The notes below the pieces were generated by a model, which had not been told where the DNA came from, made no database searches, and saw only the letters and a program-made list of their open reading frames with translations. Shown here one piece after another: positions 16,712 through 58,604 of a DNA stretch of 64,000 nucleotides (position 1 is its first letter; each line of letters starts with the position of its first letter). This DNA is from Escherichia coli (lineage in GTDB: Bacteria > Pseudomonadota > Gammaproteobacteria > Enterobacterales > Enterobacteriaceae): NCBI RefSeq assembly GCF_030013595.1, contig NZ_CP122768.1. One strand, 5' to 3'. The translations under genes and the position numbers were made by a program.

Positions 16712-17077
16712 GTCGACAGGGAGTCAGACAACGAAGTGAACATCAGGATGATGACACTTCTGAAGGACACACCAGGATGGTGTTTCAGGGAAAGGCTTCT
16801 GGATGAAGCGAAGAGGATGACGCAGGACGCGTTAAAGGACACCTCCAGGATGGAGAATGAGAACCGGTCAGGATGATTCGGTGGGTCAGGAAGGCCAGGG
16901 ACACTTCAGGATGAAGTATCACATCGGGGTGGTGTGAGCAGGAAGCAATAGTTCAGGATGAACGATTGGCCGCAAGGCCAGAGGAAAAGTTGTCAAGGAT
17001 GAGCAGGGAGCAACAAAAGTAGCTGGAATGCTGCGAAACGAACCGGGAGCACTGTGAATACAGTGCTCCCTTTTTTT
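16712..17077 (+). ncRNA. csrB: CsrB small RNA (CsrA-sequestering sRNA)
   Basis: Begins GTCGACAGGGAGTCAGACAACGAAG; more than a dozen CAGGATG/AGGA motifs spaced through ~360 nt; ends in a GC hairpin (17045-17070) plus T7 run; located between syd and yqcC. Confidence 0.85.
17045..17077 (+). terminator. Rho-independent terminator of csrB
   Basis: gggagcactg-tgaata-cagtgctccc stem-loop followed by ttttttt. Confidence 0.8.
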
Positions 17078-17122
17078 ATTCCTGCTATCCTTCGCGGCAG
17101 TTTTTCTTATTGAGGTTGCTTT

Positions 17123-40368: not shown

Positions 40369-40392
40369 GCCTTACGGAAATTGGAGCTAACT

Positions 40393-41178
40393 ATGTCAAT
40401 CGAATCTCTCAATGCGTTCTCAATGGATTTTTTCTCCCTGAAAGGTAAAACCGCAATTGTTACCGGCGGGAATAGCGGTTTAGGCCAGGCATTTGCCATG
40501 GCGCTGGCCAAAGCAGGCGCAAATATCTTTATTCCAAGCTTCGTTAAAGATAACGGCGAAACAAAGGAAATGATTGAAAAACAGGGTGTTGAGGTGGACT
40601 TCATGCAGGTGGATATCACCGCAGAAGGCGCGCCGCAGAAGATAATCGCCGCCTGTTGCGAACGTTTCGGTACCGTCGATATTCTGATTAACAATGCCGG
40701 TATTTGTAAGCTGAATAAGGTGCTGGACTTCGGTCGTGCCGACTGGGACCCGATGATTGATGTGAACCTGACCGCCGCATTCGAGTTAAGCTATGAAGCT
40801 GCAAAAATTATGATCCCGCAGAAAAGCGGTAAAATCATTAATATCTGTTCATTATTCTCTTACTTAGGTGGACAATGGTCACCTGCATATTCTGCCACTA
40901 AACATGCTCTTGCCGGGTTCACCAAAGCTTATTGTGATGAACTAGGTCAATATAATATTCAGGTAAATGGTATTGCTCCGGGATATTACGCTACCGATAT
41001 CACTCTGGCGACCCGTAGTAATCCAGAAACTAACCAGCGCGTTCTTGATCATATTCCGGCAAACCGTTGGGGCGATACTCAGGATTTAATGGGCGCAGCC
41101 GTATTCCTCGCAAGTCCGGCATCGAATTATGTCAACGGACATTTATTAGTGGTTGATGGCGGTTATTTAGTGCGCTAA
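40393..41178 (+). CDS. ygcW: Short-chain dehydrogenase/reductase YgcW (KduD-like)
   Basis: ORF 40381..41178 uses an alternative start; ATG at 40393 with GGAG RBS gives MSIESLNAF..., 261 aa; TGGNSGLG Rossmann motif. Confidence 0.9.
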   Translation: MSIESLNAFSMDFFSLKGKTAIVTGGNSGLGQAFAMALAKAGANIFIPSFVKDNGETKEMIEKQGVEVDFMQVDITAEGAPQKIIAACCERFGTVDILINNAGICKLNKVLDFGRADWDPMIDVNLTAAFELSYEAAKIMIPQKSGKIINICSLFSYLGGQWSPAYSATKHALAGFTKAYCDELGQYNIQVNGIAPGYYATDITLATRSNPETNQRVLDHIPANRWGDTQDLMGAAVFLASPASNYVNGHLLVVDGGYLVR

Positions 41179-41247
41179 TCCATAACGGTGGTTTCTGTTT
41201 TCTCTTATTAATGATTATTCCATTTTTATTATCAGGAAGGAATTACT

Positions 41248-42702
41248 ATGTCTTTATCTCGCGCAGCGATTGTCGACCAGCTAAAGGAAATTGTTGGTGC
41301 AGATCGCGTAATTACCGATGAAACAGTATTAAAGAAGAACAGTATTGACCGTTTTCGCAAATTTCCGGATATTCATGGCATTTATACTTTGCCGATTCCG
41401 GCAGCGGTCGTAAAACTCGGTTCCACAGAACAAGTATCCCGTGTGCTGAATTTTATGAATGCGCACAAAATTAACGGTGTGCCGCGTACCGGTGCTTCCG
41501 CTACCGAAGGTGGGCTGGAAACCGTTGTGGAAAACTCGGTGGTGCTCGACGGCTCTGCCATGAATCAAATCATTAATATTGATATTGAGAATATGCAGGC
41601 CACGGCGCAATGCGGAGTTCCGCTGGAAGTGCTGGAAAACGCGTTGCGTGAAAAAGGTTACACCACGGGGCATTCTCCGCAGTCAAAGCCGCTGGCGCAG
41701 ATGGGCGGCCTGGTAGCAACCCGCAGTATCGGGCAGTTCTCCACACTCTACGGCGCAATCGAAGATATGGTCGTTGGTCTGGAAGCAGTATTGGCTGATG
41801 GCACCGTAACACGCATTAAAAACGTACCACGCCGCGCGGCAGGCCCGGACATTCGTCACATCATCATCGGCAACGAAGGTGCATTGTGCTATATCACTGA
41901 AGTAACAGTGAAAATCTTTAAGTTCACCCCGGAAAACAACCTCTTCTACGGCTATATCCTGGAAGACATGAAAACCGGCTTCAACATCCTGCGTGAAATC
42001 ATGGTGGAAGGGTATCGTCCGTCGATCGCTCGTTTGTATGACGCTGAAGATGGCACCCAACACTTCACCCATTTTGCTGACGGAAAATGCGTGCTGATCT
42101 TTATGGCTGAAGGTAACCCTCGCATTGCGAAGGCGACGGGCGAAGGGATTGCTGAAATCGTGGCACGTTACCCGCAATGCCAGCGAGTGGACAGCAAGCT
42201 GATCGAAACCTGGTTTAACAACCTGAACTGGGGACCGGATAAAGTAGCTGCCGAACGTGTGCAGATCCTCAAAACCGGCAACATGGGCTTTACCACCGAA
42301 GTGTCCGGCTGCTGGAGCTGCATTCACGAAATCTACGAAAGCGTTATTAACCGTATTCGTACCGAGTTCCCGCACGCCGACGACATCACCATGCTGGGCG
42401 GTCACTCCTCTCACAGCTACCAGAACGGCACCAACATGTACTTCGTTTACGACTACAACGTTGTTGACTGTAAGCCGGAAGAGGAAATCGACAAGTACCA
42501 CAATCCGCTCAACAAAATCATCTGCGAAGAAACCATTCGCCTCGGCGGTTCGATGGTGCACCACCACGGTATTGGTAAACATCGCGTTCACTGGAGCAAA
42601 CTGGAACACGGCAGCGCGTGGACGTTGCTGGAAGGTCTGAAAAAACAGTTCGATCCTAACGGCATTATGAATACGGGTACTATCTATCCGATTGAAAAAT
42701 AA
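41248..42702 (+). CDS. ygcU: FAD-linked oxidase YgcU (alkyl-DHAP synthase-like)
   Basis: 484-aa ORF recognised as YgcU. Confidence 0.9.
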   Translation: MSLSRAAIVDQLKEIVGADRVITDETVLKKNSIDRFRKFPDIHGIYTLPIPAAVVKLGSTEQVSRVLNFMNAHKINGVPRTGASATEGGLETVVENSVVLDGSAMNQIINIDIENMQATAQCGVPLEVLENALREKGYTTGHSPQSKPLAQMGGLVATRSIGQFSTLYGAIEDMVVGLEAVLADGTVTRIKNVPRRAAGPDIRHIIIGNEGALCYITEVTVKIFKFTPENNLFYGYILEDMKTGFNILREIMVEGYRPSIARLYDAEDGTQHFTHFADGKCVLIFMAEGNPRIAKATGEGIAEIVARYPQCQRVDSKLIETWFNNLNWGPDKVAAERVQILKTGNMGFTTEVSGCWSCIHEIYESVINRIRTEFPHADDITMLGGHSSHSYQNGTNMYFVYDYNVVDCKPEEEIDKYHNPLNKIICEETIRLGGSMVHHHGIGKHRVHWSKLEHGSAWTLLEGLKKQFDPNGIMNTGTIYPIEK

Positions 42703-42794
42703 TATGTCAGGCAGCGTTCCGCTATGAGGGGCGTTGCCTTTTCGGCTTCTCAGGCGAGAAGCCGTTCTTATTACCGGACAATGAAGGGGTAAAG

Positions 42795-44132
42795 ATGAAC
42801 ACTTCACCGGTGCGAATGGATGATTTACCGCTTAACCGTTTTCACTGTCGAATTGCTGCGCTCACTTTCGGGGCGCACCTGACCGACGGTTATGTTCTCG
42901 GCGTCATTGGTTACGCCATTATTCAGCTTACACCCGCCATGCAACTGACGCCGTTTATGGCGGGAATGATTGGCGGCTCGGCGCTACTTGGCCTGTTTAT
43001 CGGTAGCCTGGTTTTGGGGTGGATCTCCGACCATATTGGTCGGCAAAAAATCTTCACCTTCAGCTTTTTGCTGATTACGCTCGCTTCGTTCTTACAATTT
43101 TTTGCCACCACGCCAGAGCATCTTATTGGACTGCGCATTTTGATCGGCATTGGTCTGGGAGGCGATTACTCAGTAGGCCACACCTTGCTGGCTGAATTTT
43201 CTCCGCGCCGCCATCGCGGTATTTTGCTGGGCGCATTCAGCGTGGTGTGGACCGCAGGCTATGTGCTGGCAAGTATTGCCGGACATCACTTTATTAGCGA
43301 AAGCCCGGAGGCCTGGCGCTGGCTGCTGGCATCGGCAGCTCTGCCCGCATTGTTGATTACGTTATTACGCTGGGGAACGCCAGAATCGCCACGCTGGCTA
43401 CTGCGCCAGGGGCGTTTTGCAGAAGCTCACGCTATCGTGCATCGCTATTTTGGTCCCCATGTTTTACTGGGCGATGAAGTGGCAACGGCGACCCATAAAC
43501 ACATCAAAACCTTGTTCTCTTCGCGCTACTGGCGGCGCACGGCGTTTAACAGCGTCTTCTTTGTCTGCCTCGTAATCCCATGGTTTGTGATTTATACCTG
43601 GCTGCCAACTATCGCCCAGACTATTGGTCTGGAAGATGCGTTGACCGCTAGCCTGATGCTTAATGCGTTGTTAATTGTGGGTGCGCTGCTGGGATTAGTT
43701 CTGACGCACCTGCTGGCACATCGCAAATTTTTGCTGGGAAGTTTTTTGCTGCTGGCGGCAACGCTGGTAGTGATGGCTTGTTTGCCTTCCGGCAGTTCAT
43801 TAACGCTGCTGCTTTTTGTTCTCTTCAGCACCACCATTTCGGCAGTCAGTAATCTGGTGGGCATTTTGCCTGCGGAAAGTTTTCCTACTGACATTCGCTC
43901 GCTGGGCGTCGGTTTTGCCACCGCCATGAGTCGGTTGGGCGCGGCAGTAAGTACTGGCCTGCTGCCGTGGGTGCTGGCGCAGTGGGGAATGCAAGTCACC
44001 TTATTGCTCCTGGCGGCTGTGTTGTTGGTTGGTTTTGTCGTGACCTGGCTATGGGCACCAGAAACCAAAGCACTCCCGCTGGTGGCGGCGGGAAATGTTG
44101 GAGGTGCGAATGAACATTCTGTTAGCGTTTAA
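42795..44132 (+). CDS. ygcS: MFS sugar-type transporter YgcS
   Basis: 445-aa polytopic ORF recognised as YgcS. Confidence 0.9.
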   Translation: MNTSPVRMDDLPLNRFHCRIAALTFGAHLTDGYVLGVIGYAIIQLTPAMQLTPFMAGMIGGSALLGLFIGSLVLGWISDHIGRQKIFTFSFLLITLASFLQFFATTPEHLIGLRILIGIGLGGDYSVGHTLLAEFSPRRHRGILLGAFSVVWTAGYVLASIAGHHFISESPEAWRWLLASAALPALLITLLRWGTPESPRWLLRQGRFAEAHAIVHRYFGPHVLLGDEVATATHKHIKTLFSSRYWRRTAFNSVFFVCLVIPWFVIYTWLPTIAQTIGLEDALTASLMLNALLIVGALLGLVLTHLLAHRKFLLGSFLLLAATLVVMACLPSGSSLTLLLFVLFSTTISAVSNLVGILPAESFPTDIRSLGVGFATAMSRLGAAVSTGLLPWVLAQWGMQVTLLLLAAVLLVGFVVTWLWAPETKALPLVAAGNVGGANEHSVSV

Positions 44133-44889
44133 AGCCGAACCGGATGCCGGAATGCTGGCGGAAAAAGAGTGGCAGGCGGCGGCTCAGGGTAATAGCGGAC
44201 CGGATGTTTCGCTTCTGCGAAGTTTACTCGGTGCTGATGAACAGGCTGCCGCCGCGCTGCTGTTGACGCAGAGAAAAAACGGTACGTCGATGTCTTTAAC
44301 CGCGTTGAGCATGGGGGATGAACGGGCGTTGCACTGGCTGCGCTATCTCATGGCTCATGGGTTTGAGGAAGCTGTATTGCTGGAGACGGCGGCAGATCTG
44401 CGCTTTGCGCCGGAATTTGTCGCTCGCCATATTGCCGAATGGCAGTACCAGAATCCGCTGGATCTGATAATTACCGGCTGCCAAAGCAGCGAAGGGCAGA
44501 ATGGGCAAACGCCATTTTTGCTGGCGGAAATGCTGGGCTGGCCCTGCTTCACCCAGGTGGAGCGTTTTACTCTCGACGCGCCGTTTATCACCCTTGAACA
44601 GCGTACTGAAAACGGGCTGCGCTGTTGCCGGGTTCGCTTGCCTGCGGTGATTGCCGTGCGTCAGTGCGGTGAAGTGGCCTTGCCAGTACCGGGAATGCGT
44701 CAGCGAATGGCGGCGGGGAAAGCAGAAATTATCCGTAAAACTGTTGCTGCCGAATCGCCAGCGATGCAGTGTCGGCAACTGGCAAGAGCAGAGCAACAAC
44801 GCGGAGCGACGCTGATTGATGGGCAAACGGTAGCAGAAAAAGCGCAAAAGCTATGGCAGGACTATTTACGCCAAAGGATGCAGCCATGA
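44110..44889 (+). CDS. ygcR: Electron-transfer-flavoprotein beta-subunit-like protein YgcR (FixA paralogue)
   Basis: ORF 44095..44889; likely start at MNILLAFKAEPD giving 259 aa; overlaps ygcS end. Confidence 0.85.
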   Translation: MNILLAFKAEPDAGMLAEKEWQAAAQGNSGPDVSLLRSLLGADEQAAAALLLTQRKNGTSMSLTALSMGDERALHWLRYLMAHGFEEAVLLETAADLRFAPEFVARHIAEWQYQNPLDLIITGCQSSEGQNGQTPFLLAEMLGWPCFTQVERFTLDAPFITLEQRTENGLRCCRVRLPAVIAVRQCGEVALPVPGMRQRMAAGKAEIIRKTVAAESPAMQCRQLARAEQQRGATLIDGQTVAEKAQKLWQDYLRQRMQP

Positions 44890-45746
44890 ATCTCGCAATT
44901 GTGACAATAAATCAGGAGAATGCCGCAATAGCGAGCTGGCTGGCAGAACAGGATTTCAGCGGTTGTACCCTGGCACACTGGCAGATTGAACCTCAGCCCG
45001 TAGTGGCGGAACAGGTGCTGGATGCGCTGGTGGAACAGTGGCAGCGAACGCCAGCGGACGTTGTTCTCTTTCCGCCGGGAACGTTTGGTGATGAACTGTC
45101 GACCCGGCTGGCCTGGCGTTTACATGGTGCAAGCATCTGCCAGGTGACTTCGTTAGATATTTCAACCGTAAGCGTGCGCAAATCCCACTGGGGAAATGCG
45201 CTAACGGCGACGCTGCAAACAGAAAAACGCCCGCTATGCCTTTCCCTGGCGCGTCAGGCGGGAGCAGCGAAAAACGCCACGTTGCCCTCTGGTATGCAGC
45301 AACTGAAAATTGTCCCAGGTGCGCTTCCCGACTGGCTGGTTAGCATAGAGAATCTGAAAAATGTTAGCCGCGACCCATTAGCTGAAGCCAGACGGGTGCT
45401 GGTGGTGGGGCAGGGCGGAGAGGCAGATAACCAGGAAATCGCTATGCTGGCAGAAAAGCTGGGAGCCGAAGTGGGCTACAGTCGGGCACGAGTGATGAAC
45501 GGTGGCGTTGATGCCGAAAAAGTGATTGGTATTTCCGGACATCTGCTGGCACCTGAGGTGTGTATTGTTGTTGGCGCTTCCGGCGCAGCAGCGTTAATGG
45601 CGGGCGTCCGCAATAGCAAGTTTGTGGTGGCGATTAATCATGACGCCAGCGCGGCGGTATTTTCACAGGCAGATGTTGGCGTGGTTGATGACTGGAAAGC
45701 GGTGCTGGAGGCACTGGTGACAAACATTCACGCAGATTGCCAATAA
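44886..45746 (+). CDS. ygcQ: Electron-transfer-flavoprotein alpha-subunit-like protein YgcQ (FixB paralogue)
   Basis: ORF 44853..45746; likely start MNLAIVTINQ giving 286 aa; 4-bp overlap with ygcR. Confidence 0.85.
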   Translation: MNLAIVTINQENAAIASWLAEQDFSGCTLAHWQIEPQPVVAEQVLDALVEQWQRTPADVVLFPPGTFGDELSTRLAWRLHGASICQVTSLDISTVSVRKSHWGNALTATLQTEKRPLCLSLARQAGAAKNATLPSGMQQLKIVPGALPDWLVSIENLKNVSRDPLAEARRVLVVGQGGEADNQEIAMLAEKLGAEVGYSRARVMNGGVDAEKVIGISGHLLAPEVCIVVGASGAAALMAGVRNSKFVVAINHDASAAVFSQADVGVVDDWKAVLEALVTNIHADCQ

Positions 45747-45790
45747 CGTGCAGCCGGATGATCCTGCCTACGGTTCTGGGCTGGGGACTT

Positions 45791-45857
45791 GTAAGCCTGA
45801 TAAGACGCGTCAAGCGTCGCATCAGGCGCTGAATGTCGGATGTGGCGTGCAGCCTAC
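45791..45857. repeat. REP/BIME elements
   Basis: gcctgataagacgcgtcaagcgtcgcatcaggc plus a second REP-like unit gtcggatgtggcgtgcagcctac. Confidence 0.6.
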
Positions 45858-45892
45858 AAATCACACAAATTCAATTCGTTACGATTATCCCG

Positions 45893-46468
45893 TCAAAGCA
45901 ATTTTTTCGCTAGCGTCCAGACCCCGGTATTCGTGGTGGAAAGCGCCACAACACCCGCGTTAATCGCATTACGTGCATCTTCTTCATCGCACACCAGCCC
46001 GCCGGCAATCAGCGGTTGGCGGATTTTCTCCGTCACCCAGCCCAGCACTTTGGGCATACAGCCTGGCAGGATCTCAATACAATCCGGATTCGATTGCGCA
46101 ACTTGCTTATCAATGTTGTGAAACGAAATTGAATCAACAATAAACAGGCGATGAATACAGAAAAAACCTTCCGCTCTTGCCGCTTTCAACATTGAGGCTT
46201 TGGTACTGATAATGCCGTCCGCCTCAGTCACCAGTTTCAAAAACTGAATCACCACTTCTTTATTTGACGCGCCTTCCAGCAAATCAACATGAATAAAAGC
46301 ATATTTTCCGGCGTTCTTAATCTTTTTAACGATATTACTGATGGTGCAGATATTGCCGTACAACACGGAAATAAACTGGCATTCAGAGTCGATTGCCAGT
46401 TGCAGGCTGGCATTATCTTTAACGGCAGCAATCACCGGATTCTGGCGGAGCAGGTGTAAGAGGGGCAT
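45893..46468 (-). CDS. ygcP: GlpP-family (glycerol-3-phosphate responsive antiterminator-like) protein YgcP
   Basis: 191-aa ORF recognised as YgcP; K-12 annotation as putative antiterminator regulator. Confidence 0.85.
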   Translation of the reverse strand: MPLLHLLRQNPVIAAVKDNASLQLAIDSECQFISVLYGNICTISNIVKKIKNAGKYAFIHVDLLEGASNKEVVIQFLKLVTEADGIISTKASMLKAARAEGFFCIHRLFIVDSISFHNIDKQVAQSNPDCIEILPGCMPKVLGWVTEKIRQPLIAGGLVCDEEDARNAINAGVVALSTTNTGVWTLAKKLL

Positions 46469-46484
46469 AAATTATCCTTATTAT

Positions 46485-46745
46485 TTATCCAAAACGGTAG
46501 GTGATGCCGAATCCGGAAGGCGGATAGCGCCACTGTTGTAGTGTTGATTCGTCGCACAGCAAACGGCAGGTGCCACACTCCAGGCAGCCGCGATAATCAA
46601 CGCGTAAGTCACCTTCCGGTGTGAGCGAAAAAAGACCAGCCGGACAAGCGTTAATCAACCGTTGTACCGTCTGACGCTCAACGGAGTCAGCCGGAACAAT
46701 GTGCGGCGCATCGGCAACGCGCCAGAGATTACGGGCTACAGACAT
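46485..46745 (-). CDS. ygcO: Ferredoxin-like protein YgcO (FixX paralogue)
   Basis: ORF 46485..46781; likely start MSVARNLW giving 86 aa; Cys cluster CLECGTCRLLC. Confidence 0.8.
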   Translation of the reverse strand: MSVARNLWRVADAPHIVPADSVERQTVQRLINACPAGLFSLTPEGDLRVDYRGCLECGTCRLLCDESTLQQWRYPPSGFGITYRFG

Positions 46746-48007
46746 CGCAGACTCCTGATAACATCGCCCGCCAGATGCCACAGGCCGTGACGACGTAAAT
46801 GACGCCAGAATAACTGGCGCAGCGGTGGAACAGGTTTATCACCCTGATCCCATAAATCGCGGGAAATATCCTGCATTAACGCAGGCCACGCACGGTACCA
46901 TCCAGGGCGTTGCAAAAGCGCCGGAACATGCTGATAACGTTGTAGAACATCCCATAGCAGGCTGCGCTCGACGTTGTGATGATAAAGCGCAAACAGATTT
47001 TGCGGCTCGCGGTGCTGGCAGGCGCTTATCAGCGTTTGTGCCGCCGCCTGCGCGCCAGTTAGCGCCATATCCATGCCGCGCACGGAAATTCCGGTATTGA
47101 CGCAACTGCGCAACGTATCGCCCACCAGCAGCCAGCCGTTACCGGCGTATTGCACCGGCATACTGTGCAAGCCACCTTCTGGCACCAGATGCGCACCATA
47201 CTCCAGTGATTCCGTGTTTTTGATAAGCGGGCGCACTGCCGGATGCGTTTTAAAGCGAGCCAGCAGCTCGCATGCCGGAGCACGACTTTGCGTAAGGGAG
47301 GAGAGCGGGCAAACAATCCCTAACGAGAGCGTTTGTTGATTAGTATAAAGAAATGCGCCGCCGGGTAAGTCATCACAGATCCCGCCGCTGAACAGCAACG
47401 CTGCGCCTTCGTTATTCTCCAGATGAAAACGTTCTTCAATAGCGGATGTTTCCAGCGACAGCACTTCTTTGATTCCTAACGCCATTGATTCGCCAGCAGG
47501 ACGAGTCACTAACCCGTGACGTTCAGCCAGGACGCTGTTGGCACCTTCTGCCAGCACCACATAACGGGCGCGGAGAATATCGTCACCACAAATGACACCA
47601 CACACCCTGCCGTTTTCTTCATACAGCGCATCCACCGTCGCACCAGGGATGCATTCGACACCTTCTTTTTCGGCTTCGGCAACCAGCCACGGATCGAACC
47701 GTGCACGTAATACACTCCAGGATTCACCGCCGGGCTGTAAGCTGGAAAACGTCGTTGCGCCATCCGGCGTTAGCAGAGAAAGGCTTTCGTGAGTGATGCG
47801 TCGTTCAAGAGGCGCGGTCAGATGAAATTGTGGGAGGAGTTCCGCGAGCGCCTGGGTATATAAACGCCCGCCGGAAAGATTTTTGCTGCCGGGGATTTCA
47901 GCGCGTTCCAGTAACAAAACGGATAAACCCGCTCGCGCGCAGCGTAACGCGCAAGCGGTGCCTGCAATACCGGCACCAATAATAATAATGTCGCAGTCGT
48001 CTTCCAT
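46736..48007 (-). CDS. ygcN: FAD-dependent oxidoreductase YgcN (ETF-quinone oxidoreductase-like, FixC paralogue)
   Basis: ORF 46736..48037; likely start MEDDCDIIIIGAGIAG (FAD-binding GxGxxG) giving 423 aa. Confidence 0.85.
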   Translation of the reverse strand: MEDDCDIIIIGAGIAGTACALRCARAGLSVLLLERAEIPGSKNLSGGRLYTQALAELLPQFHLTAPLERRITHESLSLLTPDGATTFSSLQPGGESWSVLRARFDPWLVAEAEKEGVECIPGATVDALYEENGRVCGVICGDDILRARYVVLAEGANSVLAERHGLVTRPAGESMALGIKEVLSLETSAIEERFHLENNEGAALLFSGGICDDLPGGAFLYTNQQTLSLGIVCPLSSLTQSRAPACELLARFKTHPAVRPLIKNTESLEYGAHLVPEGGLHSMPVQYAGNGWLLVGDTLRSCVNTGISVRGMDMALTGAQAAAQTLISACQHREPQNLFALYHHNVERSLLWDVLQRYQHVPALLQRPGWYRAWPALMQDISRDLWDQGDKPVPPLRQLFWRHLRRHGLWHLAGDVIRSLRCL

Positions 48008-48084
48008 GTCATGCCCCAGATATCCAGAACACAACACCCTAACATAGCGTTACTTAAGGGAAATTGACCGCCGACACACTCTTA

Positions 48085-48450
48085 TCATTCGCCGCGATAG
48101 ATGCAACCTGCGGTGCAGGTTTCTTTCACCATAACCGCACTTAACAGCGGAACAACCGGTTTAACCTGATCCCAAATCCATTTTGCTAAAACCTCGCTGG
48201 TCGGGTTTTCCAGGCCAGGAATATCATTGAGATAATAGTGATCGAGGCGCTCGTAGGTTGGCTTAAACGCCGCTTTTAGTTCAGCGAAATCGATAATCCA
48301 GCCCGTATGCGGATCGACTTCCCCGGTAATTTCCAGTCGCACCATAAAGGAATGCCCGTGCAGGCGACCACATTTATGCCCTTCCGGGACGTGTGGTAAG
48401 CGGTGAGCGGCTTCGAAGGTGAAATCTTTAAATAACGTGGTGGACATCAT
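48085..48450 (-). CDS. queD: 6-carboxy-5,6,7,8-tetrahydropterin synthase
   Basis: ORF 48085..48534; conserved product starts [18 protein letters not shown] giving 121 aa. Confidence 0.9.
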
Positions 48451-48765
48451 AATTTCTCTACATGACGATAAAACCGCCGTAGAGTACCGGAAAGGCTGTT
48501 TTTTCGCATTATCTAAAACGACTTTGTTGCGCAAAATCGCTGATTTATCTTAATGATTGGCTAAATTCATTTGTTTTTCATTGGGTTGGTTAATCTGTTT
48601 TGTTGTTAAAGACTATTGCTAAAACAGGTTAGTCGATTTGGTTATTAGTTATCGCTATCCCGTCTTTAATCCACACCGTTCACCCCGTTAACCTTACCTT
48701 CTCTTCTGTTTTATGGGCGCTGACAGGGCGCAGAAACAGCTTTGCTTACTGGAACATAACGACGC

Positions 48766-50565
48766 ATGACGACACAGGTCCCACCTTCCGCGTTGCTTCC
48801 GTTGAACCCGGAGCAACTGGCACGCCTTCAGGCGGCCACGACCGATTTAACTCCCACCCAGCTTGCCTGGGTTTCTGGCTATTTCTGGGGCGTGCTCAAC
48901 CAGCAGCCTGCTGCGCTTGCAGCGACGCCAGCGCCCGCCGCAGAAATGCCGGGTATAACTATTATCTCTGCTTCGCAAACCGGCAATGCGCGCCGGATTG
49001 CTGAAGCATTACGCGATGATTTATTGACGGCAAAACTGAACGTTAAGCTGGTGAACGCGGGCGACTATAAATTCAAACAAATCGCCAGCGAAAAACTGCT
49101 TATCGTGGTGACGTCAACGCAAGGGGAAGGGGAACCGCCGGAAGAAGCCGTCGCGCTGCATAAGTTCCTGTTCTCCAAAAAAGCGCCGAAGCTGGAAAAC
49201 ACCGCGTTTGCCGTGTTTAGCCTCGGCGATAGTTCTTATGAATTTTTCTGCCAGTCCGGGAAAGATTTTGACAGTAAGCTGGCGGAACTGGGCGGTGAAC
49301 GCCTGCTCGACCGTGTCGATGCCGACGTTGAATACCAGGCTGCTGCCAGCGAGTGGCGCGCCCGCGTGGTTGATGCGCTTAAATCGCGTGCGCCTGTCGC
49401 GGCACCTTCGCAATCCGTCGCTACTGGCGCGGTAAATGAAATCCACACCAGCCCGTACAGCAAAGACGCGCCGCTGGTGGCGAGCCTCTCTGTTAACCAG
49501 AAAATTACCGGGCGTAACTCTGAAAAAGACGTTCGCCATATCGAAATTGACTTAGGTGACTCGGGCCTGCGTTACCAGCCGGGTGACGCGCTGGGTGTCT
49601 GGTATCAGAACGATCCGGCACTGGTGAAAGAACTTGTCGAACTGCTGTGGCTGAAAGGTGATGAACCTGTCACCGTTGAGGGCAAAACCCTGCCGCTGAA
49701 CGAAGCGCTACAGTGGCACTTCGAACTGACCGTCAACACCGCCAACATTGTTGAGAACTATGCCACGCTTACCCGCAGCGAAACGCTGCTGCCGCTGGTG
49801 GGCGATAAAGCGAAGTTACAGCATTACGCCGCGACGACGCCGATTGTCGACATGGTGCGTTTCTCTCCGGCGCAACTGGATGCCGAAGCGCTGATTAACC
49901 TGCTGCGCCCGCTGACCCCGCGCCTGTATTCCATCGCCTCCTCGCAGGCGGAAGTCGAGAACGAAGTACACGTCACCGTTGGCGTGGTGCGTTACGACGT
50001 GGAAGGCCGCGCCCGTGCCGGTGGTGCCTCCAGCTTCCTCGCGGACCGCGTGGAAGAAGAGGGCGAAGTCCGCGTCTTTATCGAACATAACGATAACTTC
50101 CGCCTGCCAGCCAATCCGGAAACCCCGGTGATTATGATTGGCCCAGGCACCGGCATCGCGCCGTTCCGCGCCTTTATGCAGCAGCGCGCTGCTGACGAAG
50201 CGCCGGGTAAAAACTGGTTGTTCTTTGGCAACCCGCACTTTACGGAAGATTTCCTCTACCAGGTGGAGTGGCAGCGCTACGTGAAAGAAGGCGTATTGAG
50301 CCGCATCGATCTTGCCTGGTCGCGCGACCAAAAAGAAAAAGTTTATGTACAAGACAAACTGCGCGAACAGGGCGCGGAGCTGTGGCGCTGGATCAATGAC
50401 GGTGCCCACATTTATGTCTGCGGCGACGCTAATCGCATGGCGAAAGACGTTGAGCAGGCACTTCTGGAAGTGATTGCCGAATTTGGTGGCATGGACACCG
50501 AAGCGGCGGATGAATTTTTAAGTGAGCTGCGCGTAGAGCGCCGTTATCAGCGAGATGTCTACTAA
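48766..50565 (+). CDS. cysJ: Sulfite reductase [NADPH] flavoprotein alpha component
   Basis: 599-aa ORF recognised as CysJ. Confidence 0.95.
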
Positions 50566-52277
50566 TGAGCGAAAAACATCCAGGGCCTTTAGTGGTCGAA
50601 GGAAAACTGACAGACGCCGAGCGCATGAAGCTTGAAAGCAACTACCTGCGCGGCACCATTGCGGAAGATTTAAACGACGGTCTGACCGGCGGCTTTAAGG
50701 GCGACAACTTCCTGCTGATCCGCTTCCACGGCATGTATCAGCAGGATGACCGCGACATCCGCGCCGAACGTGCTGAACAGAAGCTGGAGCCACGTCATGC
50801 AATGCTGTTGCGCTGTCGTCTGCCGGGTGGGGTGATTACCACCAAACAGTGGCAGGCGATCGATAAATTTGCCGGTGAAAACACCATCTATGGCAGCATT
50901 CGCCTGACCAACCGCCAGACGTTTCAGTTCCACGGCATTCTGAAAAAGAACGTCAAACCGGTGCACCAGATGCTGCACTCGGTCGGTCTTGATGCGCTGG
51001 CGACTGCTAACGACATGAACCGTAACGTACTCTGCACCTCGAACCCTTACGAGTCGCAGCTACACGCGGAAGCGTATGAATGGGCGAAGAAAATCTCTGA
51101 ACATCTGCTGCCGCGTACCCGCGCGTATGCGGAGATCTGGCTCGATCAGGAAAAAGTCGCCACCACCGATGAAGAACCGATCCTCGGTCAGACTTATTTG
51201 CCGCGTAAATTCAAAACCACGGTAGTGATCCCGCCGCAGAACGATATCGATCTGCATGCCAACGACATGAACTTCGTGGCAATCGCCGAAAACGGCAAGC
51301 TGGTGGGCTTTAACCTGTTGGTGGGCGGTGGGCTTTCTATCGAACACGGCAACAAGAAAACCTACGCCCGCACGGCGAGTGAGTTTGGCTATCTGCCGCT
51401 GGAGCATACGCTGGCGGTGGCAGAAGCCGTCGTGACGACTCAGCGCGACTGGGGTAACCGTACCGATCGTAAAAATGCCAAAACCAAATACACGCTGGAG
51501 CGCGTGGGGGTTGAGACGTTTAAAGCGGAAGTGGAGCGTCGCGCGGGGATCAAATTTGAACCGATCCGTCCATATGAGTTCACCGGACGCGGCGATCGTA
51601 TTGGCTGGGTTAAAGGCATTGATGATAACTGGCACCTGACGCTGTTTATCGAAAATGGTCGCATCCTTGATTATCCTGGGCGTCCGCTGAAAACCGGCCT
51701 GCTGGAGATCGCGAAGATCCACAAAGGCGATTTCCGCATTACGGCGAACCAGAATCTGATCATCGCCGGTGTGCCGGAAAGCGAGAAAGCGAAGATCGAG
51801 AAGATCGCCAAAGAGAGCGGGTTAATGAATGCCGTCACGCCGCAGCGTGAAAACTCAATGGCCTGCGTGTCATTCCCGACTTGCCCGCTGGCGATGGCGG
51901 AAGCGGAGCGTTTCCTGCCGTCTTTTATCGACAACATCGATAATTTAATGGCGAAACATGGTGTCAGCGATGAGCATATCGTGATGCGTGTAACAGGCTG
52001 CCCGAACGGTTGTGGTCGCGCGATGTTGGCGGAAGTGGGCCTGGTGGGTAAAGCGCCGGGTCGCTACAACCTGCATCTTGGCGGCAACCGCATTGGGACA
52101 CGTATCCCACGGATGTATAAAGAAAACATCACCGAGCCGGAAATCCTGGCGTCGCTTGATGAACTGATAGGGCGCTGGGCGAAAGAGCGCGAAGCGGGTG
52201 AAGGCTTCGGCGACTTTACGGTGCGTGCGGGCATCATTCGCCCGGTGCTCGATCCGGCGCGCGATTTGTGGGATTAA
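50565..52277 (+). CDS. cysI: Sulfite reductase [NADPH] hemoprotein beta component
   Basis: 570-aa ORF recognised as CysI; start overlaps cysJ stop. Confidence 0.95.
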
Positions 52278-52295
52278 CCATCAGCCCGGTCTTGT

Positions 52296-52335
52296 AGGCC
52301 TGATAAGACGCGTGAGCGTCGCATCAGGCAAGGCA
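52296..52335. repeat. REP element between cysI and cysH
   Basis: gtaggcctgataagacgcgtgagcgtcgcatcaggcaagg palindromic REP. Confidence 0.6.
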
Positions 52336-52350
52336 AACTGTGAGGAACTT

Positions 52351-53085
52351 ATGTCCAAACTCGATCTAAACGCCCTGAACGAACTGCCGAAGGTAGATCG
52401 CATTCTGGCGCTGGCAGAAACTAACGCCGAACTGGAAAAACTGGATGCTGAAGGCCGCGTTGCCTGGGCGCTGGATAATCTGCCCGGTGAATATGTACTT
52501 TCTTCCAGTTTCGGCATTCAGGCGGCGGTGAGCCTGCATCTGGTGAATCAGATTCACCCGGATATCCCGGTGATCCTGACCGATACGGGTTATCTGTTCC
52601 CGGAAACCTACCGCTTTATTGACGAGTTAACGGACAAACTCAAGCTCAACCTGAAAGTGTACCGCGCTACCGAAAGCGCCGCCTGGCAGGAAGCGCGCTA
52701 CGGCAAACTGTGGGAGCAGGGCGTTGAAGGCATTGAAAAGTACAATGACATCAACAAAGTCGAACCGATGAACCGGGCGCTGAAAGAACTGAATGCGCAA
52801 ACCTGGTTTGCTGGCCTGCGCCGTGAACAATCCGGCAGCCGCGCCAATTTACCGGTGCTGGCAATTCAGCGTGGCGTATTTAAAGTGCTGCCGATTATCG
52901 ACTGGGATAACCGAACTATTTATCAGTACCTGCAAAAACATGGCCTGAAATATCACCCATTATGGGATGAAGGATATTTATCGGTCGGTGATACCCATAC
53001 AACCCGTAAATGGGAACCCGGCATGGCGGAAGAAGAAACGCGTTTCTTTGGCTTAAAAAGAGAATGTGGGTTACACGAAGGGTAA
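52351..53085 (+). CDS. cysH: Phosphoadenosine phosphosulfate (PAPS) reductase
   Basis: ORF 52198..53085; true start [14 protein letters not shown] at ATG 52351 gives 244 aa. Confidence 0.95.
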
Positions 53086-53102
53086 ATATTGCCGGATAAA
53101 TT

Positions 53103-53140
53103 AAACGCCTCTGTCAGAAATGATGGGGGCGTTTTTATTT
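53103..53140 (+). terminator. Candidate terminator of cysJIH
   Basis: aaacgcc...ggcgttt stem followed by ttttatttt. Confidence 0.4.
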
Positions 53141-53349
53141 TGCGAGCAGCATTCCTGATTTTAAACGTGAACGCCGCTGGAAGAATTATCAGGTATAGAA
53201 TGGCGTTGGGTGCTTGAGGCTGTCTGGCGTTAAGCATTCGCGAGGTTCCAGATGGACAAAAGCCCCAGGCGATATTTCTATCAACCTGAGGCCAGCGTTC
53301 GAACCCAAACAATTCGAATGTTAGTCTCTTCTTTGCAGGGAGGCAAGGC

Positions 53350-53502
53350 ATGCTGACAAAATATGCCCTTGTGGCAATCATAGTGCTGTGTTTTACAGTA
53401 CTGGGATTCACGCTGATGGTAGGCGACTCGTTGTGTGAGTTGAGTATCAGAGAACGTGGTATGGAGTTTAAGGCAGTTCTCGCTTACGAATCGAAGAAGT
53501 AG
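53350..53502 (+). CDS. Hok/Gef-family type I toxin (50 aa), cysH-proximal hok locus
   Basis: [50 protein letters not shown]: single TM helix plus conserved SLCE...R....E..A...YESKK Hok signature; below the 60-aa cutoff of the ORF track; 34-codon upstream ORF (53252-53356) ends ATGcTGA over its start (mok-like). Confidence 0.6.
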
Positions 53503-53523
53503 CCACCACGCGGGGGTAAAACC

Positions 53524-54861
53524 CATAAGCGCTAACTTAAGGGTTGAACCATCTGAAGAATGCGACGCCTCGGTGCCTCGTTAAGACGATGCCTCGCGTT
53601 CTTCAATTGCGTTTTGTAGGCTGTCAGGGATACTGTCCCACGAATGGCCACCTGTAAGCTCCAGATGACCATTTTTGTTATTCTCCACAACGAGTTAGTT
53701 CTTCTTTTCGGATCCGGCACTTCTGGGGGGAAATCCAGCGATGGCTGGATTATGTCGTCAATTAAAAATGCGGCGAGTAGATTAGCAAATATCCACGCTT
53801 TCGCGAGTTCAGGTTCCTTTGCACGCAAAGCATCCAGGTGCAGCAAACTTTTGAGCCGCTTAAAAGCCAGTTCAATTTGCCATCGCAGACGGTAACAATC
53901 AGCCACTTGCTCTGCTGAATATTCATCTTCCGGTAATGATGTTAGCAATAGCACATGGCCCGCTGCTTCCAGCGTTTCCGCCTGAACTACTCGTCCTTTT
54001 CGACGATTCTCGCTGAGCAGTCGGGTTTTACTGATTAATGCTTTTTCGGGAGGAAGTGATACGGCAATGAGACGTGCCGGAAAGGGAGCTCCGGCTTTTT
54101 TATTACCTGAATTGCCTATCATTACAGTGGTTTCACCGTTCTTACCGCAATCCAGCCCGCGCAGAAAACCCATCATGTCAAAGCGCATTCCTTCTGCAGT
54201 TAACCAGCGCAATCCTCGCCAGTGAACCCGGACGATATAATCAGCTTCTCCAAAAGCAAGTGAGCGGATACATTCGGGACGCGAACCGAATCCCCGGTCA
54301 GCAATGCGTATCTCGTCTGCCGTTTGCGCAAATCGGTCCAGCCGTTCAGCGTCTCTGCTGTCGGTTAGCTCAAAATCAGTGAACTGACAGGTATGAGGAT
54401 CATATCCCATATGTAGTCGCCATTCAGCGCTGCCGCCCCCGGGCGCACTGATTGCTGTTCCATCGACAAGACGCAATCTCTTTCCGCTTGTACAACCCGT
54501 AACTGCGGCGCGTACAGCAAGTGTTTGTGCGGCAAGTATGCCAAACCAGTCGGCGGCATTCCGCAGCCGCTTCAGGAGAGCCACGTCAGATAATGTTGCA
54601 ACGTCATGGAGCTGAGCCCATGCAGTGACTTCACGTAATGACATCCCCCCGGGGCCGTAAGCCAGCCCCAGACGTAGCAGAGTTGCAGCATCACGAATTT
54701 CGCGGCGGCGGGTTAGAGCCCCGGCATTACGTGCCGAAGTATCCAGTTCTTCGGGCTTACCAATATGGGCCAGAATTGCTGACCAGTTATCGTGAGAGTA
54801 ATTCATCGGCACGTTAAATCATATCAGGCGTAATACCACAACCCTTAAGTTAGCGCTTATG
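53524..54861 (-). mobile_element. IS186 (IS4 family) insertion sequence, about 1.34 kb
   Basis: Terminal inverted repeats CATAAGCGCTAACTTAAGGGTTG at 53524-53546 and 54839-54861; flanked by direct repeats GGGTAAAACC; single transposase ORF. Confidence 0.85.
53532..54644 (-). CDS. insL: IS186 transposase (DDE, IS4 family)
   Basis: ORF 53532..54812 (426 aa); start at MSLREVTAWAQLHD would give the 370-aa form I recall for K-12 InsL; the longer in-frame extension may or may not be translated. Confidence 0.8.
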   Translation of the reverse strand: MSLREVTAWAQLHDVATLSDVALLKRLRNAADWFGILAAQTLAVRAAVTGCTSGKRLRLVDGTAISAPGGGSAEWRLHMGYDPHTCQFTDFELTDSRDAERLDRFAQTADEIRIADRGFGSRPECIRSLAFGEADYIVRVHWRGLRWLTAEGMRFDMMGFLRGLDCGKNGETTVMIGNSGNKKAGAPFPARLIAVSLPPEKALISKTRLLSENRRKGRVVQAETLEAAGHVLLLTSLPEDEYSAEQVADCYRLRWQIELAFKRLKSLLHLDALRAKEPELAKAWIFANLLAAFLIDDIIQPSLDFPPEVPDPKRRTNSLWRITKMVIWSLQVAIRGTVSLTAYKTQLKNARHRLNEAPRRRILQMVQPLS

Positions 54862-54977
54862 GGGTAAAACCCCGCGTATTGAATTGTTAAAGTTTGGCCT
54901 CCTGCACCCCTTTTTTATACTCTGTTTCTGGTGGCATTGATTTCCTGCAGGCAAGGGAGTAATCATTTTCAAACCCA

Positions 54978-56015
54978 TCAAGACGCCTTCGCCAGCTCCT
55001 TCACCAGCGGTAGCATTATCCGCATAACATCACGGCAGCGACGTTCTATTCTTCCTGGAAGTGCCTTATCAATATGTTGTTGATTATCCAGTCTTACGTC
55101 ATGCCAGCTATTTCCCGCAGGGAATGCGGCTGTTTTTGCGCGTTGCTGATAACCATCTTTATTCCCAAGATTCCAGTTTGTTGCTTCTACCGAAAGTACG
55201 GCAATACCGGCTTTGTCGAAAACTTCGGCGTCATTACAACAGCCAGTACCCTTCGGATAATTTTTATTCAAACCCGGATTGGTCGTTGCGGCAATTCCAT
55301 GACTACGCGCAATTGCCAGCGCCCTGTCGCGCGTTAATTTCCTTACTGCTTCAGGGGTTTTTACACCGCTGTTGAAATACAATTTATCGCCAACAATTAA
55401 GTTATCGAGATTAATCACCAGCAGCGTATTTTTCTTTTCGGTGTCACTCATCCGCTTGAGTAAATTCTCAGCGCCTAATTTTCCTTCCTCTTCGCCGCTG
55501 GTCGCCACAAATCGAATACCATACTCGGTAGGCGTATTTTTCAGGCGTTCTGCCAGTTCCAGCATGACACCTAAACCTGCGGCGTTATCATCTATTCCTT
55601 GTAACGTCAGTCCGCCGAGATTGGCATCGGCGTCAGCATCGCTCAGCGGAGCGTAAGTATCCAGATGCGCCATAATGATGATCTGCTGCGGCGCTTTGCC
55701 TTCATGAGCGGCAATCACCGTACTTCCCGTCACGTTATGCCAGCTCTTGCGATTATCGCGGGCGGTATAAATATACCGACTATTAAATGTCCGAATATCA
55801 CTGCGATAACCCATTTGCTGAAACTGCTGGCGAATATAATCGGCAGATAACATTTCTGCAGGAGTTCCGGTCATGCGTCCCGGAAAGAAAGTAGCAATAT
55901 GTCGTGCCTGAGTATTAGCAAAATCGCCAGGTTTAGATGACGAGGCGTGTACGGGGAGAATAAAGCATACGCCGAGCGCCAGGGCAGCGGTACGGTGGCG
56001 CAATGCGGAAAACAT
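54978..56015 (-). CDS. iap: Alkaline phosphatase isozyme conversion aminopeptidase
   Basis: 345-aa ORF with signal peptide recognised as Iap. Confidence 0.9.
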   Translation of the reverse strand: MFSALRHRTAALALGVCFILPVHASSSKPGDFANTQARHIATFFPGRMTGTPAEMLSADYIRQQFQQMGYRSDIRTFNSRYIYTARDNRKSWHNVTGSTVIAAHEGKAPQQIIIMAHLDTYAPLSDADADANLGGLTLQGIDDNAAGLGVMLELAERLKNTPTEYGIRFVATSGEEEGKLGAENLLKRMSDTEKKNTLLVINLDNLIVGDKLYFNSGVKTPEAVRKLTRDRALAIARSHGIAATTNPGLNKNYPKGTGCCNDAEVFDKAGIAVLSVEATNWNLGNKDGYQQRAKTAAFPAGNSWHDVRLDNQQHIDKALPGRIERRCRDVMRIMLPLVKELAKAS

Positions 56016-56266
56016 AGTGAGTCCTTAAATACCATGCAAATTTTTTTACCGCCATAGTATGAAACTGCCGATGCGCTAAAACAATTTCAAATCTTCCTAA
56101 ACGCCCGAAATCCGGTGCCTTAAGCACTTTTTGATATTAGCTTTGCCAAATCGTTATTCCGTTAAGGAACTACTCATTCTAATTGGTAATTTCATTCGTT
56201 CTCCTGCGCTCCCTATAGTCGAAACATCTGATGGCAAGAAAATAGCGGTATTGCAAAGGAACGGTT

Positions 56267-57175
56267 ATGGATCAAAAACGACTTACTCACCTGCGGCAAC
56301 TGGAGGCGGAAAGCATCCACATTATTCGCGAGGTGGCGGCAGAATTCTCAAATCCGGTGATGCTCTACTCTATCGGTAAAGATTCCAGCGTCATGCTGCA
56401 TCTGGCGCGCAAGGCGTTTTATCCAGGTACGCTGCCTTTCCCGTTGCTGCATGTCGATACCGGCTGGAAATTCCGCGAGATGTATGAGTTCCGCGATCGT
56501 ACGGCTAAAGCCTACGGCTGCGAGCTGCTGGTGCATAAAAACCCGGAAGGCGTGGCGATGGGGATTAATCCATTCGTTCATGGCAGCGCGAAACATACCG
56601 ATATTATGAAAACTGAAGGCCTGAAACAGGCGCTGAATAAATACGGTTTTGATGCCGCCTTCGGTGGTGCACGCCGCGACGAAGAGAAATCCCGCGCTAA
56701 AGAGCGAATCTACTCTTTCCGTGACCGCTTCCATCGCTGGGATCCGAAAAATCAGCGCCCGGAGCTGTGGCACAACTACAACGGGCAAATTAACAAAGGC
56801 GAAAGCATTCGCGTCTTCCCGCTCTCTAACTGGACCGAGCAGGATATCTGGCAATACATCTGGCTGGAAAATATCGACATTGTTCCGCTGTATCTCGCTG
56901 CGGAACGACCGGTTCTGGAACGCGACGGTATGTTGATGATGATTGATGACAACCGTATCGACCTGCAACCGGGCGAAGTGATTAAAAAACGGATGGTGCG
57001 TTTCCGTACGCTGGGCTGCTGGCCGCTGACCGGCGCGGTGGAGTCAAATGCGCAAACACTGCCGGAGATCATCGAAGAGATGCTGGTCTCCACCACCAGT
57101 GAACGTCAGGGCCGCGTGATTGACCGCGACCAGGCGGGGTCTATGGAGCTGAAAAAACGTCAGGGGTATTTTTAA
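56267..57175 (+). CDS. cysD: Sulfate adenylyltransferase subunit 2
   Basis: 302-aa ORF recognised as CysD. Confidence 0.95.
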
Positions 57176-57176
57176 G

Positions 57177-58604
57177 ATGAACACCGCACTTGCACAACAA
57201 ATCGCCAATGAAGGCGGCGTCGAAGCCTGGATGATTGCGCAACAACATAAAAGCCTGCTGCGTTTTCTGACCTGTGGTAGCGTCGATGACGGCAAAAGTA
57301 CCCTGATTGGTCGCCTGTTGCACGATACCCGCCAAATCTACGAAGATCAGCTCTCATCGCTGCATAACGACAGTAAACGTCACGGCACCCAGGGCGAAAA
57401 ACTGGATCTGGCACTGCTGGTGGACGGCCTGCAAGCTGAGCGCGAACAGGGCATCACCATTGACGTGGCTTACCGTTATTTCTCTACCGAGAAGCGTAAA
57501 TTTATTATCGCCGATACCCCAGGGCACGAGCAGTACACTCGCAATATGGCGACTGGCGCATCGACATGTGAACTGGCGATCTTACTGATCGATGCCCGTA
57601 AAGGCGTGCTCGATCAAACCCGTCGTCACAGTTTTATCTCCACACTGTTGGGGATCAAACATCTGGTCGTGGCGATCAACAAAATGGATCTGGTGGATTA
57701 CAGTGAAGAGACGTTCACCCGTATTCGTGAAGATTATCTGACCTTTGCCGGGCAGCTGCCGGGTAATCTGGATATCCGCTTTGTGCCGCTCTCCGCACTG
57801 GAAGGTGACAACGTGGCTTCGCAAAGTGAAAGTATGCCGTGGTACAGCGGTCCGACACTGCTCGAAGTGCTGGAAACCGTGGAGATCCAGCGAGTGGTGG
57901 ATGCCCAGCCAATGCGCTTCCCGGTGCAGTACGTTAATCGCCCGAATCTCGATTTTCGTGGCTACGCCGGAACGCTGGCATCCGGTCGAGTGGAAGTCGG
58001 GCAACGTGTCAAAGTGCTGCCCTCTGGTGTGGAATCAAACGTCGCGCGGATCGTGACTTTTGATGGCGATCGCGAAGAAGCCTTTGCCGGAGAAGCGATC
58101 ACCCTGGTGCTGACGGATGAGATCGACATCAGCCGTGGCGATCTGCTGCTGGCGGCAGACGAAGCGTTACCGGCTGTGCAGAGCGCGTCGGTGGATGTGG
58201 TATGGATGGCGGAACAGCCGCTTTCCGCGGGCCAGAGTTATGACATCAAAATTGCCGGTAAGAAGACGCGTGCTCGTGTTGATGGTATTCGTTATCAGGT
58301 TGATATTAATAACCTTACCCAACGCGAAGTTGAAAACCTGCCGCTGAACGGCATCGGCCTGGTGGATCTCACTTTTGACGAGCCACTGGTGTTAGATCGT
58401 TATCAGCAAAATCCGGTTACCGGTGGGCTGATTTTTATCGATCGCCTGAGCAATGTGACCGTGGGTGCCGGTATGGTGCACGAGCCAGTTAGCCAGGCAA
58501 CTGCTGCGCCATCTGAATTCAGTGCATTTGAACTGGAATTGAATGCCCTGGTTCGTCGCCACTTTCCGCACTGGGGCGCACGCGATTTGCTGGGGGATAA
58601 ATAA
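57177..58604 (+). CDS. cysN: Sulfate adenylyltransferase subunit 1 (GTPase)
   Basis: 475-aa ORF recognised as CysN; G-domain motif GSVDDGKST. Confidence 0.95.

Follow-up and report, generated by a model that had tools for sequence, protein, structure and literature searches.

Why does an Escherichia coli genome carry no cas genes between cysH and iap, where the type I-E CRISPR system (named for clustered short palindromic repeats that are regularly interspaced) may reside, and is the insertion sequence (IS) that now lies in this interval, IS186, the cause of their absence? The question is raised by a 64,000-nucleotide stretch of contig NZ_CP122768.1 (assembly GCF_030013595.1), referred to below as the window. 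From the comparisons described here, the cysH–iap interval of the window is "arrangement B" of the CRISPR-I locus, a cas-less state already published (Almendros 2014, PMC3903273); it was most likely brought in by homologous recombination, with IS186 inserted into it only later. We put a probability of roughly 0.85 on this reading as a whole, that is, on the arrangement B allele, its arrival by recombination, the later IS186 insertion and the consequences taken jointly.

A cas-less interval and the allele it matches

The two boundary genes are 1,892 bp apart, and the space between them is filled by the sokX/hokX locus, one IS186 and a further 116 bp, the latter consisting of the second copy of the IS186 target duplication and a 106-bp spacer before iap. 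A tblastn search with 16 Cas proteins, eight from each of the two I-E variants (K-12 for E2, O157 for E1), found no Cas homologue anywhere in the 64-kb window (best E = 0.018), and the positive control worked. Likewise, no copy of the 29-nt I-E repeat was found in the interval at up to three mismatches, the only matches in the window being those of the CRISPR-II array (Table 1). The first-pass annotation, made from the letters of this DNA, had described a 1.9-kb interval free of cas genes and of the CRISPR-I array, and this description is correct in every detail.

It had also taken K-12 as the standard of comparison. K-12 is the wrong one, since its cas genes are of the E2 variant and its hok open reading frame (ORF) has been lost. 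Among cas-positive loci, the apt comparator is "arrangement A", the E1 form seen in O157, ETEC4077 and ST2747. In K-12 MG1655, homology to the hokX locus ends exactly at the hok start codon, and sokX and the leader remain beside an E2-type cas3; Almendros 2014 (PMC3903273) also states that E2 strains are without hok.

Alignment against genomes with and without I-E cas, as the first-pass annotation had suggested, defines both edges of the junction. When the window is aligned with O157 and ETEC4077, both of them cas-E1 strains, homology extends from hok to position ~54915–54917 and resumes on the iap side at 54964, so that the junctions can be set at ~54917 and 54964, with a 46-bp segment between them that has no counterpart in the cas-positive loci. 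Compared with the leader, repeats, spacers and cas genes of these loci, the 46 bp showed a similarity no better than that of shuffled controls. A decayed terminal CRISPR repeat, an idea that had come from inspection by eye, was rejected, as local alignment against O157, ETEC4077 and K-12 likewise stayed at the shuffled level. An exact 20-mer from the segment was also sought in the genomes that represent 100,044 species, where exact matches only were counted; it had two, one in an unrelated coding sequence and the other in a Lachnospiraceae contig. We take both to be chance matches, and the E. coli representative, presumably K-12, evidently lacks the cas-less junction.

The junction is common in E. 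coli. As query we used the window with IS186 and one duplication copy removed, and in 5,426 complete E. coli genomes the contiguous hok–iap junction without IS186 was found 1,111 times, including in the B2 strain EC958. The identity of these matches is mostly ~95% (for example, in EC958, which belongs to ST131) within an allele range of 95–99%, and a second set made up of O166:H15 strains, PCN033 and soil isolates reaches 98–99%, their tract being much nearer to that of the window than EC958's. With IS186 taken out, the junction of the window is base-identical to that of strain HCP5S3_I2 and nearly identical to that of EC958. The features shared with arrangement B, as given by Almendros 2014, are the lack of the cas-E genes, of the leader and of the CRISPR2.1 array, together with a hok/sok locus kept beside cysH and an IG3 segment joined to the iap-proximal region.

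IS186 entered an interval that was already cas-less

The direct repeats around IS186, which the first-pass annotation had called intact, are real. They comprise a 12-bp identity, GGGGTAAAACCC, at 53513–53524 and 54861–54872, within which the inverted repeats set the ends of the element and leave a true target duplication of 10 bp, GGGTAAAACC. The rebuilt target site, GGGGGTAAAACCCC, has the form GGGG-GTAAAA-CCCC and fits the IS186 target motif 5′-GGGG(N6/N7)CCCC-3′ (Lee et al. 2016, PMC5009759). The DNA beyond the right end of the element is what usually comes after hokX.

The order of events can be read from genomes in which the site is still empty. Two isolates from pigs, HCP5S3_I2 and LCP30S3_I5, match the 2,537-bp rebuilt uninterrupted sequence at 100% identity. 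Between HCP5S3_I2 and the window there are no more than three differences across 9.1 kb on the right side of IS186 and, CRISPR-II differences aside, nine point differences in the 16 kb to its left (37524–53524). Since these near-identical genomes have an empty cas-less site, IS186 inserted very recently within the clone, after the cas-less allele was in place. The first-pass annotation had regarded IS186 as a simple insertion and not the agent of cas loss, and as probably later than that loss or independent of it. The first of these views is borne out by the 10-bp duplication, the canonical site, the native hokX downstream sequence and the empty-site clone-mates, the second by the same clone-mates and by the 1,111 of 5,426 genomes that have the same cas-less configuration without IS186.

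A causal role for IS186 is not an idle suggestion, as the element has had one elsewhere. In arrangement G (BL21/BL21(DE3), REL606 and E. coli B), which also lacks cas genes, IS186 stands behind hokX at the same position and in the same orientation. There, the right end of the element abuts GGGGTTTTTCCCC inside a CRISPR2.1 spacer, the target duplication is missing, IG3 is gone and five CRISPR2.1 repeats are left before iap; in the window, by contrast, the 10-bp duplication is present, the right end meets native IG3 and no repeats are found. The right-end structure of E. coli B is what recombination between two IS186 copies leaves behind, and IS186 is thus the agent of cas deletion in E. coli B and not in the window. 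IS186 provides a portable patch of homology, and in E. coli B, C and ATCC 8739 this patch did bring about the deletion of cas.

That IS186 removed cas from the window as well, through two-copy recombination or an adjacent deletion, could draw on the shared left junction of BL21, REL606 and others and on the ~278 genomes with IS186 close to iap. Against it stand the perfect 10-bp duplication flanking the window copy, the IG3 kept to its right and the lack of any CRISPR remnant in the interval, and the clone-mates with the same cas-less junction and no IS186 refute it for this genome, so that we give it almost no weight. The locus is therefore a clean natural example, by virtue of the flanking duplication and the empty-site clone-mate, of an IS that lies beside a missing gene cluster and need not be the cause of its loss.

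IS186 occurs in E. coli in multiple copies (median, ~2 matching places per genome), and repeats are classic sites of mis-joining, so one may ask whether a false join across the element hides a linked cas operon. In cas-positive strains, however, cas3 starts to the right of IG3, past 54917, in unique sequence 56 bp beyond IS186, and a mis-join at IS186 could not hide cas for this reason. Both flanks of IS186 are moreover contiguous in independent assemblies, and the target duplication is intact; a mis-assembly of this kind is extremely improbable.

The IS186 copy itself is 99.9% identical to those of BL21, 7CC and VTB96933v. Aligned with these three, it has a run of six G at 53727–53732 in place of seven, which shifts the transposase frame after residue 361 and replaces the last nine residues by 63 others. 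The product would be 424 instead of 370 amino acids long, matching the reference protein through residue 361, and the full-length 370-residue transposase is not encoded. A genuine mutation that inactivates or alters the enzyme may underlie this frameshift, or else a sequencing error in the homopolymer.

The likely route of cas loss in this lineage

The genomes nearest to the window on the cysJIH side are ETEC4077 (99.3%) and ST2747 (98.7%), and both contain the full cas-E1 operon and a CRISPR-I array. Relative to ETEC4077, the window has five differences in 40369–52026, dense differences over 52416–58589, and sparse ones after ~58990. The cas-less allele thus sits in a tract dense in single-nucleotide polymorphisms (SNPs) relative to a cas-positive near relative, which points to a loss of cas by allelic replacement, and we infer that this, not local deletion, is the most likely route. 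In cysH, ETEC4077 and ST2747 differ from each other at eight positions and the window differs from both at 22–26; its cysH is nearest to that of 7CC, with 10 differences. A second SNP-dense stretch relative to ETEC4077, at 37692–39706 in the ygcE/yqcE region, is probably another recombination tract.

The course of events suggested by these comparisons is as follows. Homologous recombination would have replaced a cas-E1-positive locus like that of ETEC4077 or ST2747 with a cysH–cysN tract from an unsampled donor, the imported DNA amounting to ~4.8 kb when the later IS186 is excluded. Later, and very recently, IS186 inserted into the GGGG(GTAAAA)CCCC hairpin that lies directly behind the stop codon of hokX and made its 10-bp duplication. 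The locus would then show the loss of CRISPR-Cas by allelic replacement between very close relatives.

In favour of a fresh local deletion in the lineage of the window are its cas-positive nearest relatives on the cysJIH side, which mean that a recent change of state occurred. Such a deletion, however, would have had to recreate, to the base, the junction of distant cas-less strains like EC958, its 46 bp included, and to do so with 46 bp that cannot be derived from the cas-positive loci; moreover, the change coincides with the SNP-dense tract over cysH, iap, cysD and cysN. We consider a local deletion improbable.

The reverse polarity has somewhat more to recommend it. The cas-less allele might be the ancestral, unoccupied site into which the I-E system inserted, or ETEC4077 and ST2747 might have re-acquired cas. 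The 46 bp without a cas-positive counterpart are unexplained by plain deletion, and the allele is both widespread and diverse (95–99% identity). On the other side, cysH groups ETEC4077 with ST2747 and not with the window, the CRISPR-II array of the window shares spacers with ETEC4077, which suggests a cas-positive past, and Almendros 2014 (PMC3903273) inferred deletion as the most parsimonious course. An ancestral site or re-acquisition therefore seems unlikely, although clearly less so than a local deletion.

Several points weigh against import of the arrangement B allele and what is said to follow from it. The direction of recombination is drawn mainly from cysH and one outgroup, ST2747, and is held with moderate confidence. 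The pattern in iap is a mosaic. No donor of the tract was found among the sampled genomes, where the best non-clonal match reaches 98.9% (AST215). The view is one of 64 kb, and cas genes may be present elsewhere in the genome. Finally, the effect on hokX expression set out below is a prediction from folding and from the plasmid R1 model.

The CRISPR-II array, 17 kb from the interval, offers a second view of the past of this lineage. Two of its spacers are common to the window and the cas-positive ETEC4077, and an array with these shared spacers is consistent with a cas-positive past of the window lineage. Spacers 4 and 5 are identical, which points to a tandem duplication of one unit, and the two leader-proximal spacers are missing from the clone-mate HCP5S3_I2, which has five spacers. 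Because no Cascade, Cas3 or Cas1–2 is encoded at the cysH–iap locus, the array is orphaned unless cas genes lie outside the window. CRISPR-II in such strains would be non-functional baggage, a point that matters for spacer typing and for the inference of immunity. The nearby CRISPR2.2 mini-array has two degenerate repeats in the window against three in HCP5S3_I2; it is without one 61-bp repeat–spacer unit of that strain, and ETEC4077 has a gap of the same size.

Table 1. Positions of the features discussed, numbered from the first letter of the window
Feature	Position	Strand	Evidence or remark
CsrB small RNA, full-length	16721–17080		RF00018, 383 bits
CRISPR-II (CRISPR2.3) array, orphan	36201–36717	+	9 repeats, 8 spacers; no cas genes in the window
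Degenerate CRISPR2.2 mini-array	37173–37249		
Putative recombination tract, cysH to cysN, carrying the cas-less allele	~52416–58589		Dense SNPs relative to ETEC4077, near-identical flanks
cysH (phosphoadenosine phosphosulfate (PAPS) reductase), left boundary gene	52351–53085	+	TIGR02057, 346 bits; RefSeq annotation of homologous loci agrees
Terminator-like hairpin of cysH	53103–53134		
hokX mRNA 5′ leader (sok/hok)	53208–53365	+	Rfam RF01794, 112.4 bits, gathering score 59
tac-like 5′ segment of hokX mRNA	53208–53221	+	Predicted pairing with the 3′ fold-back element
SokX antisense RNA	53252–53310	-	59/59 identity to annotated K-12 sokX (b4701)
hokX toxin ORF, 50 amino acids, intact	53350–53502	+	PF01848 Hok/Gef, 43 bits, cut-off 22
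Left duplication copy, GGGTAAAACC	53514–53523		Forms the left half of the hairpin behind hok, CGCGGGGG-TAAAA-CCCCGCG, now split
IS186 (IS4 family), 1,338 bp	53524–54861	-	Perfect 23-bp terminal inverted repeats
IS186 transposase ORF (DDE)	54806–53532	-	NF033592, 132.7 bits (cut-off 115); PF01609, 93 bits
Right duplication copy	54862–54871		Repeat search and inverted-repeat ends
Native hokX downstream sequence with a T-run (IG3 of Almendros 2014)	54872–54917	+	Common to O157 and ETEC4077 up to ~54915–54917
3′ fold-back element of hokX, in IG3	54896–54909	+	Now cut from hokX by IS186
Junction segment, 46 bp, private to cas-less genomes	54918–54963		Base-identical in the window, HCP5S3_I2 and B2 strain EC958
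14 bp 3′ of the iap stop codon	54964–54977		Common to all arrangements
iap, right boundary gene	54978–56015	-	NF007568, 704 bits

The hokX module as an IS186 target, compared with known systems

The toxin gene beside cysH belongs to the Hok/Gef family by PF01848; with the NCBIfam models, the scores of its ORF are below the curated cut-offs (57.7 against 89 for HokA, and 41 against 73 for Hok). The Hok protein at the same locus in BL21, HCP5S3_I2 and ETEC4077 is WP_000956460.1, a Hok/Gef family protein, and HCP5S3_I2 is base-identical to the window across the hokX ORF. In the minimum-free-energy fold of the rebuilt, uninterrupted transcript, the first 14 nt (the tac-like segment) pair with the 3′ fold-back element, and a hairpin, CGCGGGGG-UAAAA-CCCCGCG, forms right after the stop codon. 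The same 5′–3′ fold-back, predicted here, is known for the hok gene of plasmid R1.

IS186 interrupts the loop of this hairpin and displaces the 3′ pairing partner by 1.3 kb, so that the tac–fbi pairing is not available within a contiguous mRNA, its partners being separated by the 1,338-bp element. Transcripts of hokX would run into IS186, antisense to the transposase gene, and the inert form could not close. The split from the fold-back element and terminator probably abolishes the pool of stable inert hokX mRNA, a pool on which hok systems rely. By analogy with plasmid R1, the module would be disabled because this stable reservoir of toxin mRNA is lost.

The window is by no means alone in this insertion. 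Among the 5,426 complete genomes, IS186 occupies the exact hokX site in the orientation of the window in 592 and in the opposite orientation in 172, that is, in 14% of genomes for both orientations. These counts are specific to the locus, having been made with 851-bp queries that take in cysH at its 3′ end. Less specific junction queries gave 839 and 1,724, values that were discarded as inflated by paralogous hok loci with IS186 neighbours. Almendros 2014 (PMC3903273) already names the IG2–IG3 boundary as an IS186 target. Taken together, the hairpin after hokX is a natural hot spot for IS186, used in different lineages and in both orientations. In one further genome, WP5-S17-ESBL-10 (NZ_AP022105.1, 12300–14400), the IS186 at the hokX site is followed by rpiA and argP and not by cas or iap, and marks the breakpoint of a large rearrangement.

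Genomes that combine the cas-less B allele with IS186 are rare. In strain 7CC the element has the orientation of the window; in VTB96933v, where the background is cas-less too, it is reversed and flanked by the same duplication. GPEC856, GPEC403-625 and 100416 have an IS-sized gap like that of VTB96933v and no match to the same-orientation junction query; judged from these alignments, their IS186 probably also lies in the opposite orientation.

One could go further and propose that the cas-less allele, with its 46-bp private junction, is no deletion scar but an old alternative allele, possibly an unoccupied ancestral site, that persists in the species as a presence/absence polymorphism and is shuttled between lineages by homologous recombination over a few kilobases, and that the hokX hairpin serves as a "handle" for IS186. 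The window would then record one very recent swap from cas-positive to cas-less, leaving an orphan CRISPR-II, and the hairpin would be a selected handle that silences hokX and provides homology for further cas loss. We regard this proposal as doubtful. The locus as read here has little weight beyond bookkeeping. A cysH–iap interval lacking type I-E cas is, for E. coli, a textbook polymorphism, known and ordinary, and the IS186 hot spot at the hokX hairpin has been described before. Only the exact combination of allele and IS186, and the evidence for cas loss by allelic replacement, add something new.

A 2025 survey of uropathogenic strains reported that in 54% Region B had hok/sokX and no CRISPR-Cas components (PMC12736100), and the strains of its Groups V–IX lack these components in Region B, like the window. 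The window differs from arrangement B in the extra IS186 at the IG2–IG3 boundary, and arrangement B with IS186 is not among the nine main arrangements described in the text of Almendros 2014 (PMC3903273). With regard to target choice, there is no difference of substance from the IS186 specificity described by Lee et al. 2016, and both orientations occur at the hokX site. The flanks of the window bear a weak resemblance to those of B2 strains (~95% identity), and the CRISPR-II array present in the window is missing in EC958.

A parallel to the insertion itself comes from K-12. Pedersen and Gerdes are reported to have described in 1999 that IS insertions adjoin hokA, hokC and hokE of that strain, two of the pairs being hokC/IS186A and hokE/IS186B. 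At these two loci, IS186 reportedly lies in a GC-rich hairpin just 3′ of an intact hok ORF, the same arrangement as that found in the window, where the paralogue concerned is hokX.

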